From assembly GCF_055900595.2 (NCBI RefSeq), contig NZ_CM148325.1: a stretch of DNA of 64,000 nt. One strand, written 5' to 3'. Both the position numbers and the translations under genes were made by a program. Of this stretch, positions 6,007-48,008 are shown one piece after another (position 1 is the first letter of the stretch; every line of letters starts with the position of its first letter). Under the pieces are notes generated by a model. That model ran no database searches. It was not told where the DNA came from and was given only the letters and a program-made list of their open reading frames with translations.

Positions 6007-6370
6007 GTCGACAGGGAGTCAGACAACGAAGTGAACATCAGGATGATGACACTTCTGCAGGACACACCAGGAGGGTGTTTCAGGGAAAGGCTTCTGGATG
6101 AAGCGAAGAGGATGACGCAGGACGCGTTAAAGGACACCTCCAGGATGGAGAATGAGAACCGGTCAGGATGATTCGGTGGGTCAGGAAGGCCAGGGACACT
6201 TCAGGATGAAGTATCACATCGGGGTGGTGTGAGCAGGAAGCAATAGTTCAGGATGAACGATTGGCCGCAAGGCCAGAGGAAAAGTTGTCAAGGATGAGCA
6301 GGGAGCAACAAAAGTAGCTGGAATGCTGCGAAACGAACCGGGAGCACTGTGAATACAGTGCTCCCTTTTT
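6007..6370 (+). ncRNA. csrB: CsrB small RNA (CsrA-sequestering)
   Basis: About 360 nt with no long ORF, many CAGGATG/AGGA motifs spaced along it, ending in a GC stem plus T-run; 5' end approximate. Confidence 0.9.
6339..6370 (+). terminator. csrB intrinsic terminator
   Basis: Stem GGGAGCACTG / CAGTGCTCCC followed by TTTTT. Confidence 0.8.
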
Positions 6371-6371
6371 G

Positions 6372-7085
6372 TGCACAGAAAACCCCCAGCTAGGCTGGGG
6401 GTTCCGGAAAGCTTTCAGCTTTGAGCCAGTTATTAAAACCCCTTTTGATTTGTTAAAACACCTTGCGGTCTGGCAACTGCAAGTGTCAAACAAGAAATCA
6501 AAAGGGGGTCCCAATGGGGGACGAAAAGAGCTTAGCGCACACCCGCTGGAACTGTAAATATCACATAGTTTTTGCGCCGAAATACCGAAGACTGGCGTTT
6601 TACGGAGAGAAGCGTAGGGCGATAGGCAGTATTTTGAGAAAGCTGTGTGAGTGGAAAAGCGTACGGATTCTGGAAGCAGAGTGCTGCGCAGATCATATCC
6701 ATATGCTTGTGGAAATCCCACCCAAAATGAGCGTATCCGGCTTTATGGGATATCTGAAAGGGAAAAGCAGTCTGATGCTTTACGAGCAGTTTGGGGATTT
6801 GAAATTCAAATACAGAAACAGGGAGTTCTGGTGCCGAGGGTACTATGTCGATACGGTGGGTAAGAACACGGCGAAGATACAGGACTACATAAAGCACCAG
6901 CTTGAAGAGGATAAAATGGGGGAGCAGTTATCGATTCCATATCCGGGCAGCCCGTTTACGGGCCGTAAGTAACGAAGTTGAATGCAAATGTCAGATCGTA
7001 TGCGCCTGTTAGGGCGCGGCTGGTAACAGAGCCTTACAGGCGCATTTGAAAAACCTCCGGCTATGCCGGAGGATATTTATTTTTA
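6372..7085 (+). mobile_element. IS200-like insertion sequence (IS200/IS605 family); boundaries approximate
   Basis: About 710 bp unit holding a 152-aa Y1-transposase ORF, a perfect palindrome CCCCCAGCTAGGCTGGGGG at the left end and stem-loops at the right end; no inverted terminal repeats, as expected for IS200. Confidence 0.72.
6514..6972 (+). CDS. tnpA: IS200 transposase TnpA (HUH/Y1 type)
   Basis: MGDEKSLAHTRWNCKYHIVFAPKYRR...HIHMLVEIPPKMSVSGFMGYLKGKSS...; 152 aa from the internal Met of ORF 6463..6972. Confidence 0.9.
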   Translation: MGDEKSLAHTRWNCKYHIVFAPKYRRLAFYGEKRRAIGSILRKLCEWKSVRILEAECCADHIHMLVEIPPKMSVSGFMGYLKGKSSLMLYEQFGDLKFKYRNREFWCRGYYVDTVGKNTAKIQDYIKHQLEEDKMGEQLSIPYPGSPFTGRK

Positions 7086-17402: not shown

Positions 17403-19637
17403 ATGGTTGCGGTAAGAAGTGCACATATCAATAAGGCTGGTGAATTTGATCCGGAAAAATGGATCGCAAGTCTGGGTATTACCAGCCAGAAGTCGTGTGA
17501 GTGCTTAGCCGAAACCTGGGCGTATTGTCTGCAACAGACGCAGGGGCATCCGGATGCCAGTCTGTTATTGTGGCGTGGTGTTGAGATGGTGGAGATCCTC
17601 TCGACATTAAGTATGGACATTGACACGCTGCGGGCGGCGCTGCTGTTCCCTCTGGCGGATGCCAACGTAGTTAGCGAAGATGTGCTGCGTGAGAGCGTCG
17701 GTAAGTCGGTCGTTAACCTTATTCACGGCGTGCGTGATATGGCGGCGATCCGCCAGCTGAAAGCGACGCATACCGATTCTGTTTCCTCCGAACAGGTCGA
17801 TAACGTTCGCCGGATGTTATTGGCGATGGTCGATGATTTCCGCTGCGTGGTCATCAAACTGGCAGAGCGTATTGCTCATCTGCGCGAAGTAAAAGACGCG
17901 CCGGAAGATGAACGCGTACTGGCGGCAAAAGAGTGCACCAATATCTACGCGCCGTTGGCGAACCGTCTTGGGATTGGACAACTGAAATGGGAGCTGGAAG
18001 ATTACTGCTTCCGTTATCTCCACCCGACCGAATACAAACGCATCGCAAAACTGCTGCATGAACGCCGTCTCGACCGCGAACACTATATCGAAGAGTTTGT
18101 CGGTCATCTGCGCGCTGAGATGAAAGCTGAAGGCGTTAAAGCTGAAGTGTATGGTCGTCCGAAACACATCTACAGTATCTGGCGCAAAATGCAGAAAAAG
18201 AACCTCGCCTTCGATGAGCTGTTTGATGTGCGTGCGGTACGTATTGTCGCCGAGCGTTTACAGGATTGTTATGCCGCACTGGGGATAGTGCACACTCACT
18301 ATCGCCACCTGCCGGATGAGTTTGATGATTACGTTGCTAACCCGAAACCAAACGGTTATCAGTCTATTCATACCGTGGTTCTGGGGCCGGGTGGCAAAAC
18401 CGTTGAGATCCAAATCCGCACCAAACAGATGCATGAAGATGCAGAGTTGGGTGTTGCTGCGCACTGGAAATATAAAGAGGGCGCGGCTGCTGGCGGCGCA
18501 CGTTCGGGACATGAAGACCGAATTGCCTGGCTGCGTAAACTGATTGCGTGGCAGGAAGAGATGGCTGATTCCGGCGAAATGCTCGACGAAGTACGCAGCC
18601 AGGTCTTTGACGACCGGGTGTATGTCTTTACGCCGAAAGGTGATGTCGTTGATTTGCCTGCGGGATCAACGCCGCTGGACTTCGCTTACCACATCCACAG
18701 TGATGTCGGACACCGCTGCATCGGGGCAAAAATAGGCGGGCGCATTGTGCCGTTCACCTACCAGTTGCAGATGGGCGACCAGATTGAAATTATCACCCAG
18801 AAACAGCCGAACCCCAGCCGTGACTGGTTAAACCCAAACCTCGGTTACGTCACAACCAGCCGTGGGCGTTCGAAAATTCACGCCTGGTTCCGTAAACAGG
18901 ACCGTGACAAAAACATTCTGGCAGGGCGGCAAATCCTTGACGACGAGCTGGAACATCTGGGGATCAGCCTGAAAGAAGCAGAAAAACATCTGCTGCCGCG
19001 TTACAACTTCAATGATGTCGACGAGTTGTTGGCAGCGATTGGTGGCGGGGATATCCGTCTCAATCAGATGGTGAACTTCCTGCAATCACAATTTAATAAA
19101 CCGAGTGCCGAAGAGCAGGATGCCGCCGCGCTGAAGCAACTTCAGCAAAAAAGCTATACGCCACAAAACCGCAGTAAAGATAACGGTCGGGTGGTGGTTG
19201 AAGGTGTCGGCAACCTGATGCACCACATCGCGCGCTGCTGCCAGCCGATTCCTGGAGATGAGATTGTCGGCTTCATTACCCAGGGGCGCGGTATTTCAGT
19301 ACACCGCGCCGATTGCGAACAACTGGCGGAACTGCGCTCCCATGCGCCAGAACGCATTGTTGACGCGGTATGGGGTGAGAGCTACTCCGCCGGATATTCG
19401 CTGGTGGTCCGCGTGGTGGCTAATGATCGTAGTGGGTTGTTACGTGATATCACGACCATTCTCGCCAACGAGAAAGTGAACGTGCTTGGCGTTGCCAGCC
19501 GTAGCGACACCAAACAGCAACTGGCAACCATCGACATGACTATTGAGATTTACAACCTGCAAGTGCTGGGCCGCGTGCTGGGTAAACTCAACCAGGTGCC
19601 GGATGTTATCGACGCGCGTCGGTTGCACGGGAGTTAG
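17403..19637 (+). CDS. relA: GTP pyrophosphokinase RelA ((p)ppGpp synthetase I)
   Basis: 744-aa ORF MVAVRSAHINKAGEFDPEKWIASLG... Confidence 0.95.
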   Translation: MVAVRSAHINKAGEFDPEKWIASLGITSQKSCECLAETWAYCLQQTQGHPDASLLLWRGVEMVEILSTLSMDIDTLRAALLFPLADANVVSEDVLRESVGKSVVNLIHGVRDMAAIRQLKATHTDSVSSEQVDNVRRMLLAMVDDFRCVVIKLAERIAHLREVKDAPEDERVLAAKECTNIYAPLANRLGIGQLKWELEDYCFRYLHPTEYKRIAKLLHERRLDREHYIEEFVGHLRAEMKAEGVKAEVYGRPKHIYSIWRKMQKKNLAFDELFDVRAVRIVAERLQDCYAALGIVHTHYRHLPDEFDDYVANPKPNGYQSIHTVVLGPGGKTVEIQIRTKQMHEDAELGVAAHWKYKEGAAAGGARSGHEDRIAWLRKLIAWQEEMADSGEMLDEVRSQVFDDRVYVFTPKGDVVDLPAGSTPLDFAYHIHSDVGHRCIGAKIGGRIVPFTYQLQMGDQIEIITQKQPNPSRDWLNPNLGYVTTSRGRSKIHAWFRKQDRDKNILAGRQILDDELEHLGISLKEAEKHLLPRYNFNDVDELLAAIGGGDIRLNQMVNFLQSQFNKPSAEEQDAAALKQLQQKSYTPQNRSKDNGRVVVEGVGNLMHHIARCCQPIPGDEIVGFITQGRGISVHRADCEQLAELRSHAPERIVDAVWGESYSAGYSLVVRVVANDRSGLLRDITTILANEKVNVLGVASRSDTKQQLATIDMTIEIYNLQVLGRVLGKLNQVPDVIDARRLHGS

Positions 19638-19649
19638 GCCGAAATTAGC

Positions 19650-19700
19650 TCGTATCTACAATGTAGATTGATATATACTGTATCTACATATGATAGCGGT
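19650..19700 (+). promoter_or_regulatory. mazEF promoter with alternating palindrome
   Basis: TCTACAATGTAGATTGATATATACTGTATCTACATATGA repeated half-sites immediately upstream of mazE. Confidence 0.55.
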
Positions 19701-19714
19701 TTGAGGAAAGGGTT

Positions 19715-19963
19715 ATGATCCACAGTAGCGTAAAGCGTTGGGGAAATTCACCGGCGGTGCGGATCCCGGCTACGTTAATGCAGGCGCTCAATCTGAATAT
19801 TGATGATGAAGTGAAGATTGACCTAGTGGATGGCAAATTAATTATTGAGCCAGTGCGTAAAGAGCCCGTATTTACGCTTGCTGAACTGGTCAACGACATC
19901 ACGCCGGAAAACCTCCACGAGAATATCGACTGGGGGGAGCCGAAAGATAAGGAAGTCTGGTAA
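19715..19963 (+). CDS. mazE: Antitoxin MazE
   Basis: 82-aa [30 protein letters not shown]... Confidence 0.93.
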
Positions 19964-20298
19964 TGGTAAGCCGATACGTACCCGATACGGGCGATCTGAT
20001 TTGGGTTGATTTTGACCCGACAAAAGGTAGCGAGCAAGCCGGACATCGTCCGGCTGTTGTCCTGAGTCCGTTCATGTACAACAACAAAACAGGTATGTGT
20101 CTGTGTGTTCCTTGTACAACGCAATCAAAAGGATATCCGTTCGAAGTTGTTTTATCCGGTCAGGAACGTGATGGTGTAGCGTTAGCTGATCAGGTAAAAA
20201 GTATCGCCTGGCGGGCAAGAGGAGCAACGAAGAAAGGAACGGTTGCCCCAGAGGAATTACAACTCATTAAAGCCAAAATTAACGTACTGATTGGGTAG
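19963..20298 (+). CDS. mazF: mRNA interferase toxin MazF
   Basis: 111-aa [38 protein letters not shown]...; start overlaps mazE stop. Confidence 0.93.
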   Translation: MVSRYVPDTGDLIWVDFDPTKGSEQAGHRPAVVLSPFMYNNKTGMCLCVPCTTQSKGYPFEVVLSGQERDGVALADQVKSIAWRARGATKKGTVAPEELQLIKAKINVLIG

Positions 20299-20368
20299 TG
20301 TTACTAACTCACTTCTATTCTGGTCACAGGTTTCCACCTGACAGACCCGCAATTTTCAGGACAATTCA

Positions 20369-21160
20369 ATGAATCAAATCGACCGTTTGCTCACTATTAT
20401 GCAGCGCCTGCGCGACCCGGAAAACGGCTGCCCGTGGGATAAAGAGCAGACATTTGCCACCATTGCACCTTACACCCTTGAAGAAACCTACGAAGTGCTG
20501 GACGCCATCGCCCGTGAAGATTTTGACGATCTGCGCGGTGAGCTCGGCGATCTATTGTTTCAGGTGGTGTTTTACGCGCAAATGGCTCAGGAAGAAGGGC
20601 GCTTTGATTTTAATGATATCTGCGCCGCGATTAGCGATAAGCTAGAACGTCGCCATCCACATGTTTTTGCAGGCAGTTCTGCCGAAAACAGTAATGAAGT
20701 GCTTGCCCGTTGGGAGCAAATCAAAACCGAAGAGCGCGCGCAGAAAGCGCAGCATTCGGCGCTAGACGATATTCCTCGTAGTTTACCGGCTTTAATGCGT
20801 GCGCAAAAAATCCAGAAACGTTGCGCCAACGTTGGCTTCGATTGGACGACGCTTGGTCCGGTAGTCGATAAAGTCTACGAAGAGATCGACGAGGTGATGT
20901 ACGAGGCGCGGCAGGCTGTTGTCGACCAGGCTAAACTGGAGGAGGAAATGGGTGACCTGCTGTTTGCCACGGTCAACATGGCCCGCCATTTAGGGACAAA
21001 AGCAGAGATTGCACTACAAAAAGCCAATGAAAAATTCGAGCGCCGTTTTCGCGAAGTGGAGCGTATTGTTGCCGCGCGTGGACTGGAAATGACAGGTGTT
21101 GACCTCGAAACAATGGAAGAAGTCTGGCAACAGGTAAAACGGCAGGAAATTGATCTCTAA
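20369..21160 (+). CDS. mazG: Nucleoside triphosphate pyrophosphohydrolase MazG
   Basis: 263-aa ORF MNQIDRLLTIMQRLRDPENGCPWDKEQTF... Confidence 0.92.
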   Translation: MNQIDRLLTIMQRLRDPENGCPWDKEQTFATIAPYTLEETYEVLDAIAREDFDDLRGELGDLLFQVVFYAQMAQEEGRFDFNDICAAISDKLERRHPHVFAGSSAENSNEVLARWEQIKTEERAQKAQHSALDDIPRSLPALMRAQKIQKRCANVGFDWTTLGPVVDKVYEEIDEVMYEARQAVVDQAKLEEEMGDLLFATVNMARHLGTKAEIALQKANEKFERRFREVERIVAARGLEMTGVDLETMEEVWQQVKRQEIDL

Positions 21161-28137: not shown

Positions 28138-29466
28138 CTGAGAGATCCCCTCATAATTTCCCCAAAACGTAACCATGTGTGAATAGATTTTGAGTAAGCA
28201 GGGTTGCAGCCACGAGTGAGTCTTCCCTTGTTATTGTGTAGCCAGAATGCCGCAAAACTTCCATGCCTAAGCGAACTGTTGAGAGTACGTTTCGATTTCT
28301 GACTGTGTTAGCCTGGAAGTGCTTGTCCCAACCTTGTTTCTGAGCATGAACGCCCGCAAGCCAACATGTTAGTTGAAGCATCAGGGCGATTAGCAGCATG
28401 ATATCAAAACGCTCTGAGCTGCTCGTTCGGCTATGGCGTAGGCCTAGTCCGTAGGCAGGACTTTTCAAGTCTCGGAAGGTTTCTTCAATCTGCATTCGCT
28501 TCGAATAGATATTAACAAGTTGTTTGGGTGTTCGAATTTCAACAGGTAAGTTAGTTGCTAGAATCCATGGCTCCTTTGCCGACGCTGAGTAGATTTTAGG
28601 TGACGGGTGGTGACAATGAGTCCGTGTCGAGCGCTGATTTTTTCGGCCTTTAGAGCGAGATTTATACAATAGAATTTGGCATGAGATTGGATTGCTTTTA
28701 GTCAGCCTCTTATAGCCTAAAGTCTTTGAGTGACTAGATGACATATCATGTAAGTTGCTGATAGGTTTCCAGTTTTCCGCTCCTAGGTCTGCATATTGTA
28801 CTTTTCCTCTTACTCGACTTAACCAGTACCAACCCAGCTTCTCAACGGATTTATACCATGGCACTTTAAAGCCAGCATCACTGACAATGAGCGGTGTGGT
28901 GTTACTCGGTAGAATGCTCGCAAGGTCGGCTAGAAATTGGTCATGAGCTTTCTTTGAACATTGCTCTGAAAGCGGGAACGCTTTCTCATAAAGAGTAACA
29001 GAACGACCGTGTAGTGCGACTGAAGCTCGCAATACCATAAGCCGTTTTTGCTCACGGATATCAGACCAGTCAACAAGTACAATGGGCATCGTATTGCCCG
29101 AACAGATAAAGCTAGCATGCCAACGGTATACAGCGAGTCGCTCTTTGTGGAGGTGACGATTACCTAACAATCGGTCGATTCGTTTGATGTTATGTTTTGT
29201 TCTCGCTTTGGTTGGCAGGTTACGGCCAAGTTCGGTAAGAGTGAGAGTTTTACAGTCAAGTAAGGCGTGGCAAGCCAACGTTAAGCTGTTGAGTCGTTTT
29301 AAGTGTAATTCGGGGCAGAATTGGTAAAGAGAGTCGTGTAAAATATCGAGTTCGCACATTTTGTTGTCTGATTATTGATTTTTGGCGAAACCATTTGATC
29401 ATATGACAAGATGTGTATCCACCTTAACTTAATGATTTTTACCAAAATCATTAGGGGATTCATCAG
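28138..29466 (-). mobile_element. IS10 (IS4 family), complete 1329-bp copy
   Basis: Ends CTGAGAGATCCCCTCATAATTTCCCC (inside end) and, on the reverse strand, CTGATGAATCCCCTAATGATTTTGGT (outside end); exact length 1329 bp; 402-aa transposase; flanked by 9-bp direct repeat. Confidence 0.93.
28151..29359 (-). CDS. IS10 transposase
   Basis: 402-aa ORF MCELDILHDSLYQFCPELHLKRLNSLTLACHALLDCK... Confidence 0.93.
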   Translation of the reverse strand: MCELDILHDSLYQFCPELHLKRLNSLTLACHALLDCKTLTLTELGRNLPTKARTKHNIKRIDRLLGNRHLHKERLAVYRWHASFICSGNTMPIVLVDWSDIREQKRLMVLRASVALHGRSVTLYEKAFPLSEQCSKKAHDQFLADLASILPSNTTPLIVSDAGFKVPWYKSVEKLGWYWLSRVRGKVQYADLGAENWKPISNLHDMSSSHSKTLGYKRLTKSNPISCQILLYKSRSKGRKNQRSTRTHCHHPSPKIYSASAKEPWILATNLPVEIRTPKQLVNIYSKRMQIEETFRDLKSPAYGLGLRHSRTSSSERFDIMLLIALMLQLTCWLAGVHAQKQGWDKHFQANTVRNRNVLSTVRLGMEVLRHSGYTITREDSLVAATLLTQNLFTHGYVLGKL

Positions 29467-30576: not shown

Positions 30577-31154
30577 GAGTTCCCCACGTCAGCGGGGATA
30601 AACCTTGCTCGATGCGGGCGTTAACTTTTTTATAGGCGAGTTCCCCGCGCCAGCGGGGATAAACCGCGTAATTTTGTACGCTCAACACGTAACTAAATGA
30701 GTTCCCCGCGCCAGCGGGGATAAACCGATCACCAGTGCGGATTGTTCAAATAGTGCCTGGAGTTCCCCGCGCCAGCGGGGATAAACCGAGAGCTATATCG
30801 CAGCGTTTAACTGGATGACAGAGTTCCCCGCGCCAGCGGGGATAAACCGGTGTTTTTTGCCATCTGAACTGTGGCACGCCGGAGTTCCCCGCGCCAGCGG
30901 GGATAAACCGTCTATAATGTCTCATCCGGGGTTAATTCAATCGAGTTCCCCGCGCCAGCGGGGATAAACCGATCAGCCCCACATCCGGTTTTGCCAGCAA
31001 CGTGAGTTCCCCGCGCCAGCGGGGATAAACCGTAAGATGATCTCACGGAATTGAACGAACTACGGAGTTCCCCGCGCTAGCGGGGATAAACCGGACACAG
31101 AGCGCCGCTATAGCGCCTATGCCAAGAGTTCCCCGCACCAGCGGGAATAAACCA
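30577..31154 (+). CRISPR. Type I-E CRISPR array (CRISPR 2.3-like): 10 repeats, 9 spacers of 32 nt
   Basis: 29-nt repeat GAGTTCCCCGCGCCAGCGGGGATAAACCG at 61-bp period starting 30577, 30638, ... 31126; first and last repeats degenerate; AT-rich leader-like region 30240..30576. Confidence 0.95.
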
Positions 31155-47593: not shown

Positions 47594-47855
47594 ATATTGC
47601 CGGATAAAATAAACGCCTCTGTCAGAAATGATGGGGCGTTTTTATTTTGCGAGCAGCATTCCGGCATTTAAACGTGAATATAGCAAGGGAAATCAACAGT
47701 TATAGAATGGCGTCGGGTGCTTGAGGCTGTCTGGCGTTGAGCATTCGCGAGGTTCCAGATGGACAAAAGCCCCAGGCGATATTTCTATCAACCTGAGGCT
47801 CGCGTTCGAACGTAGCAATTCGGATGTTAGTCTCTTCTTTGCAGGGAGGCAAGAC

Positions 47856-48008
47856 ATGCTGACAAAATATGCCCTTGTGGCAATCATCGTACTGTGTTGT
47901 ACAGTACTGGGATTCACGCTGATGGTAGGCGACTCGTTGTGTGAGTTGAGTATCAGAGAACGTGGTATGGAGTTTAAGGCAGTTCTCGCTTACGAATCGA
48001 AGAAGTAG
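47856..48008 (+). CDS. Hok/Gef-family type I toxin peptide (hokX-like)
   Basis: 50 aa [50 protein letters not shown]: one TM helix plus Hok C-terminal signature; GGGAGG RBS at 47844; GC hairpin ACGCGGGGGTAAAACCCCGCGT follows the stop. Confidence 0.7.

Follow-up and report, generated by a model that had tools for sequence, protein, structure and literature searches.

The relA-mazG mazEF toxin-antitoxin operon in an Escherichia coli chromosome: genes, three-site operator, putative antisense RNA, and a cassette present in most complete genomes

We analyzed a stretch of 64,000 nucleotides from contig NZ_CM148325.1 (RefSeq assembly GCF_055900595.2), hereafter the window, with a focus on positions 19638 to 20298, where a first-pass annotation had placed a mazEF toxin-antitoxin pair downstream of relA. 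The sequence from 19300 to 20700 and the list of open reading frames (ORFs) revealed four plus-strand genes in series, with ORFs of 744, 82, 111, and 263 amino acids (aa), namely relA, mazE, mazF, and mazG (Table 1). The relA stop codon ends at 19637, leaving 19638 as the first base beyond it, and 20298 is the end of the mazF stop codon; the ORFs, the Pfam families, and the RefSeq annotation of identical DNA all agree with the position originally proposed. At the mazE/mazF junction, GTCTGGTAATGGTAAG, we found the stop-start overlap that had been described for the pair, a one-base TAATG overlap at 19961-19965 in which the A at 19963 is common to the mazE TAA (19961-19963) and the mazF ATG (19963-19965). 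The two genes therefore form an antitoxin-first bicistronic operon with overlapping stop and start codons, as in E. coli MazEF, and they occupy the chromosomal position of that system, between relA and mazG. The AAGGAAG motif at 19949-19955, together with the TAATG overlap, further suggests that translation of mazE and mazF may be coupled.

Table 1. Features of the mazEF locus and its flanks, with positions counted from the first base of the window
Feature	Position	Strand	Basis or remark
relA (GTP diphosphokinase)	17403..19637	+	744-aa ORF; Pfam HD_4, RelA_SpoT, TGS, RelA_AH_RIS, ACT
mazE, predicted antitoxin and autorepressor, 82 aa	19715..19963	+	ORF, Pfam PF04014, NCBIfam NF007312, PDB 1MVF_D
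mazF, predicted ACA-specific endoribonuclease toxin, 111 aa	19963..20298	+	ORF, Pfam PF02452, NCBIfam NF007386, PDB 3NFC_A
mazG (nucleoside triphosphate pyrophosphohydrolase)	20369..21160	+	263-aa ORF; Pfam MazG 133.9 bits; RefSeq annotation
Fis-like 15-mer GGCCGAAATTAGCTC	19637..19651		K-12 version GGCCGAAATTTGCTC matches the consensus
mazEF operator 'cab', 50 bp, three MazE-dimer sites	19649..19698	+	exact match to PMC4333400 oligonucleotides
Operator site c	19652-19670		exact match to PMC4333400 oligonucleotide
Operator site a (ATATAT core 19671-19676)	19668-19681		exact match to PMC4333400 oligonucleotide
Operator site b	19673-19691		exact match to PMC4333400 oligonucleotide
Alternating palindrome	19654..19689		ATCTACA 19654-19660, TGTAGAT 19662-19668, ATCTACA(T) 19682-19689; repeat search
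Shine-Dalgarno-like GAGGA	19703..19707	+	7 nt 5' of mazE ATG; from sequence
Shine-Dalgarno-like AAGGAAG	19949..19955	+	in mazE 3' end, 7 nt 5' of mazF ATG; from sequence
Weak promoter-like site	20338..20365		5' of mazG; promoter scan
Position equivalent to K-12 antisense RNA aMEF (b4844)	20003→19604	-	NC_000913.3 feature 2911051..2911450, transferred via gap-free alignment
mazEF cassette, ~698 bp	19639..20336		alignment to mazEF-less NZ_CP030768.1

At the protein level, MazE is identical at 82 of 82 residues to the crystallized E. coli MazE (PDB 1MVF chain D), while MazF matches PDB 3NFC chain A at 110 of 111 residues, with M9T as the sole change. Both proteins scored above the cut-offs of their NCBIfam equivalog models (MazE against NF007312, 196.2 bits with a cut-off of 113; MazF against NF007386, 226.4 bits with a cut-off of 120), and Pfam returned, above threshold, MazE_antitoxin (PF04014, AbrB/SpoVT-type, 52.9 bits) and PemK_toxin (PF02452, 85 bits). 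The MazF translation retains E24, R29, and T52, of which R29 and T52 are what we take to be functionally important residues. For E24, an inactive E24A mutant has been described (PMC5888573). MazE has the architecture of an N-terminal AbrB/SpoVT-type DNA-binding domain followed by a disordered MazF-binding C-terminal tail, and all of K7, R8, W9, N11, and R16, reported as its DNA-contact residues (PMC4333400), are retained in the translation. At 82 and 111 aa, the two ORFs have their full length, and neither shows the frameshift or truncation whose absence had already been remarked upon. From the 82/82 and 110/111 identities, we infer ACA-specific, ribosome-independent cleavage by MazF and its neutralization by MazE. 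Judged from its sequence, the locus is almost certainly mazEF (chpA), the type II toxin-antitoxin operon of the E. coli chromosome, complete and apparently functional. It is an ordinary mazEF, already known in every respect, and its earlier description as a canonical, known system is borne out by the equivalog scores, the two protein identities, and the match of its operator to the published 'cab' sequence.

Over 841 bp (19560-20400), the alignment to K-12 MG1655, which is the comparison with a reference mazEF that the first-pass annotation had called for, is gap-free, with 10 substitutions and 98.8% identity, and eight RefSeq chromosomes of E. coli, annotated with relA, mazE, mazF, and mazG, match the same 841 bp at 100% identity. 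Single-nucleotide differences from K-12 lie at 19988 (M9T), 20241, 19647, 20040, 20052, and 20070, the remainder being silent. Residue 9 of MazF is Thr (ACG, 19987-19989), as opposed to Met in K-12 and in all top PDB entries. Across our population survey, which comprised 5426 complete E. coli genomes, T9 was found in 490, including the type strain DSM 30083, and M9 in 3919; T9 is thus common among natural strains. The A at 19647 occurs in 341 complete E. coli genomes. The mazF coding sequence contains eight ACA sites, compared with nine in K-12 mazF (PMC5888573), the site at 20239-20241 being lost by a synonymous change of ACA to ACG. The effect of these small allele differences on function is probably negligible.

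Upstream of mazE lies the autoregulatory 'cab' operator with its alternating palindrome, as in E. coli MazEF, and it overlaps the autoregulated promoter region. The 'cab' oligonucleotide was used by Zorzini et al. 2015 in ITC, EMSA, and NMR experiments, which placed three MazE-dimer sites in the order c-a-b, with 'a', the best studied, centered on an ATATAT palindrome; MazF near a 1:1 ratio strengthens MazE-operator binding, and excess MazF relieves it (PMC4333400). Here, the middle arm of the alternating palindrome, TGTAGAT, is 100% complementary to its upstream neighbor over 7 nt, across a gap of 1 nt, and to its downstream neighbor over 8 nt, across a gap of 13 nt, and the ATATAT core of site 'a' falls between the second and third arms. 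Counted on both strands, the heptamer ATCTACA has 6 copies in the 64 kb, against 4.7 expected from shuffles, and three of these heptamers lie within 35 bp, a cluster that is not due to chance because ~1.5e-5 such clusters are expected per window. The alternating palindrome was reportedly named by Marianovsky et al. in 2001 (a study cited in PMC5888573, PMC1626106, and PMC4333400), who are also said to have mapped the P2 and P3 promoters and a Fis site. Although the CTACA/TGTAG arms noted in the first-pass annotation are real, its description of them as repeated operator half-sites simplifies how MazE reads the DNA: the MazE sites are c-a-b, with 'a' centered on ATATAT (PMC4333400), so that the heptamers cannot simply be equated with half-sites. 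The 50-bp operator is highly conserved: of the 4407 complete E. coli genomes that have it, 4015 show 100% identity.

The only intergenic SNP, an A at 19647 where K-12 has T, lies just 5' of the operator and breaks a Fis-like motif. The K-12 version of the 15-mer, GGCCGAAATTTGCTC, is a perfect match to GNNYRWWWWWYRNNC, which we take to be a Fis-like consensus, and is the single such match in the K-12 locus, compared with none at the locus here. A match of this kind is expected 0.39 times by chance per 3 kb and is not statistically compelling. Fis binding on the upstream side of the mazEF promoter has been reported (PMC7167474), and we treat the 15-mer at 19637-19651 as a putative Fis site and a lead only. 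A simple sigma-70 consensus scan detected no strong promoter within the operator and yielded three weak 9/12 matches against 1.6 expected. The match near the operator, at 19690-19719, extends into the mazE start codon, and the scan was therefore not used to assign P2 and P3. The terminator scan found no plus-strand terminator-like sites in the relA-mazE gap or in the mazF-mazG gap, which is consistent with the published co-transcription of relA-mazEFG (PMC7167474).

The minus strand of the locus includes the position equivalent to the K-12 antisense RNA aMEF. Transferred to the window, this 400-nt RNA would start 40 nt inside mazF and span the whole of mazE, the operator, and 34 nt at the relA 3' end. 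In K-12, aMEF becomes visible only when RNase III is mutated and has a non-canonical promoter, a role played by the 75-bp region upstream of its start, and knock-down of this promoter results in less mazE-only transcript and altered MazE and MazF levels (Van Gundy et al. 2022, PMC8749433). The equivalent 75 bp here (20004-20078) differ from K-12 by three synonymous SNPs, at 20040, 20052, and 20070. An Rfam search over 19400-20500 at a permissive E-value returned no family for aMEF or for a leader; the only match in that interval, to an archaeal snoRNA, was attributed to chance (17.7 bits versus a gathering score of 44). Also antisense to the operon is a 146-aa minus-strand ORF (19684-20124, TTG start), which lies wholly opposite the conserved mazE and mazF, has its start codon upstream of the start mapped for aMEF, and has no family match in NCBIfam; we judged it to be mechanical or spurious and probably not a gene. 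Annotation of this stretch should add aMEF and the three-site 'cab' operator beside the two genes.

The differences from K-12 described above, i.e., T9, eight rather than nine ACA sites, A19647, and the three silent SNPs in the region of the aMEF promoter, might in combination set an expression or activation threshold different from that of K-12, a reading to which we give little credence. If it were true, natural E. coli lineages would bear functionally distinct mazEF "settings".

Elsewhere in the window, several RNA and repeat features were observed. A CsrB sRNA (6016-6375, 374 bits) is directly followed by the Hfq-binding RNA STnc490 (6381-6504, 146 bits). Rfam RNA-OUT matched at 29352-29421 on the plus strand (97 bits) and abuts a 402-aa minus-strand ORF (28151-29359); together (28151-29421) they resemble an IS10-type insertion sequence, ~1.3 kb from a short CRISPR array. 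That array, at 30699-31093, has a period of 61 and ~6-7 repeats, the repeat GAGTTCCCCGCGCCAGCGGGGATAAACCG being the E. coli type I-E repeat. Finally, the sok antitoxin RNA matched at 47715-47871 on the plus strand (103 bits) and is presumably the module that the first-pass annotation had listed as "hok-like".

Across the 5426 genomes surveyed, the mazEF cassette is present in 4415 (81%), in agreement with the published prevalence above 80% (Nikolic et al. 2025, PMC12151602), while an undisturbed relA-mazG junction without the cassette is found in 1007 (19%). Aligned against one such genome, NZ_CP030768.1, homology ends one base past the relA stop and resumes at CCTGACAGACCC (20337), 32 nt short of the mazG ATG; in place of the cassette, the empty allele has ~63 unrelated bases with a GCTGGATA...TATCCAGC hairpin. 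The GC content of the cassette is 46%, that of relA 53.5%, and that of mazG 51%. A mobile-element origin by way of a plasmid was considered, and the cassette had 0 plasmid places among the 20,395 records of the 5426 complete genomes. This presence/absence polymorphism of mazEF has been described before: Fraikin et al. 2020 noted the undisturbed relA-mazG operon of UTI89 (PMC7167474). Because 19% of genomes carry the empty-site allele, adjacency to relA is better regarded as an accident of insertion than as functional coupling, and the polymorphism argues against using the relA neighborhood as evidence of a functional link.

How such an operon would work can be drawn from the literature on the K-12 proteins, which are the same as those here bar one residue (PMC4333400, PMC5888573, PMC1626106, PMC7167474). 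MazE dimers would occupy the three operator sites via AbrB-type domains at their N-termini, thereby repressing the promoter, and MazF dimers would bind the disordered MazE C-termini, giving a MazF2-MazE2-MazF2 complex in which MazF is neutralized. Formation of this complex would raise operator affinity at a ratio of ~1:1, and excess MazF would lower it again. MazE would be labile, being degraded by the ClpAP and Lon proteases, as reported for the antitoxin in contrast to its stable toxin (PMC5888573, PMC1626106). Freed MazF would then cleave ACA sites in single-stranded RNA, among them the eight found here in its own message, and translation and growth would stop. In addition, aMEF may tune the levels of the mazE and mazEF transcripts and proteins.

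What this machinery does for the cell is disputed in the literature. Programmed cell death has been proposed (PMC1626106), reversible stasis or the absence of a measurable phenotype has been reviewed (PMC7167474), modest protection from RNA phages has been reported (PMC12151602), and selfish maintenance has also been argued. One explanation, in our view somewhat less likely than not, is that mazEF is mainly a selfish, addictive insertion without a host role linked to either relA or mazG, which would persist because its loss frees a stable toxin and because it is otherwise near-neutral. The sharp borders of the polymorphism (4415 genomes with the cassette versus 1007 undisturbed junctions) and the lower GC content of the cassette than of its flanking genes speak for this, and PMC7167474 argues likewise, citing UTI89 and deletion strains without fitness defects. 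However, several points speak against it: the cassette has no plasmid copies among the 5426 complete genomes, its operator hardly varies, aMEF has been added as a further layer of control, and small fitness gains under RNA-phage attack have been reported (PMC12151602).

A second, rather doubtful explanation is that mazEF is a weak native anti-phage element in which infection would disturb the supply of MazE and MazF would cleave phage and host RNA at ACA. The relative fitness of wild type versus ΔmazEF was 1.15-1.29 under MS2 or Qβ, ACA is depleted in RNA-phage genomes (both PMC12151602), and higher P1 infection loads in ΔmazEF are cited by PMC7167474; other defense or stress modules also lie in the window (the CRISPR array at 30699-31093 and the sok RNA at 47715). 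Against it, the effects in these reports are small, the cassette is dispensed with in 19% of genomes, and neither MazE nor MazF matched an anti-phage model in PADLOC-DB v2, although this last result means that mazEF is not in that catalog and says nothing against an anti-phage effect.

The programmed-cell-death model, as set out in PMC1626106, fits the position of mazEF immediately downstream of relA without an intervening terminator-like site, but we consider it improbable: the effects are bacteriostatic and reversible, strains with multiple toxin-antitoxin deletions have no fitness defect, the leaderless-mRNA and specialized-ribosome claims were not reproduced (all PMC7167474), and relA and mazG are intact and adjacent in the 1007 cassette-less genomes, which argues that functional coupling is not obligatory. 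A remnant that has decayed or become inactive, or a paralog (ChpBS/ChpBK or the plasmid PemIK/Kis-Kid) in place of mazEF proper, to which the single M9T substitution and the few SNPs of the regulatory region are all that could point, is effectively refuted by the PDB identities and NCBIfam scores, with both ORFs full length, key residues intact, the T9 allele common to 490 genomes, ChpB and ChpS models far from reached (55.4 bits versus a cut-off of 129 and 34.6 versus 101, respectively), and a distant Kid match (E = 7.8e-9).

The known systems most similar to the operon include K-12 MazE/MazF (ChpAI/ChpAK; b2783/b2782; PDB 1UB4, 1MVF, 3NFC, and 5CR2), with which it shares locus, neighbors, gene order, and stop-start overlap; MazE and the 'cab' operator are identical, and the two are collinear without indels over 841 bp. 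The mazEF-less allele (e.g., UTI89 and NZ_CP030768.1) has identical flanks, comprising the relA 3' end and the sequence from 32 nt upstream of mazG onward. ChpBS/ChpBK (chpB) belongs to the same fold families, with an AbrB-type antitoxin and a PemK/MazF-type endoribonuclease, and likewise places the antitoxin first in its operon, but it is a separate paralog at another chromosomal site, and ACG/ACU are reported as the sequences recognized by ChpB (PMC12151602) as compared with ACA for MazF. Kis-Kid (PemI-PemK) of plasmid R1/R100 (PDB 1M1F) has a toxin of homologous fold and is regulated in the same way as mazEF, with toxin-antitoxin stoichiometry tuning operator binding (PMC4333400); it differs in being a distant sequence match, borne on a plasmid and acting in post-segregational killing, whereas the mazEF cassette is chromosomal only.
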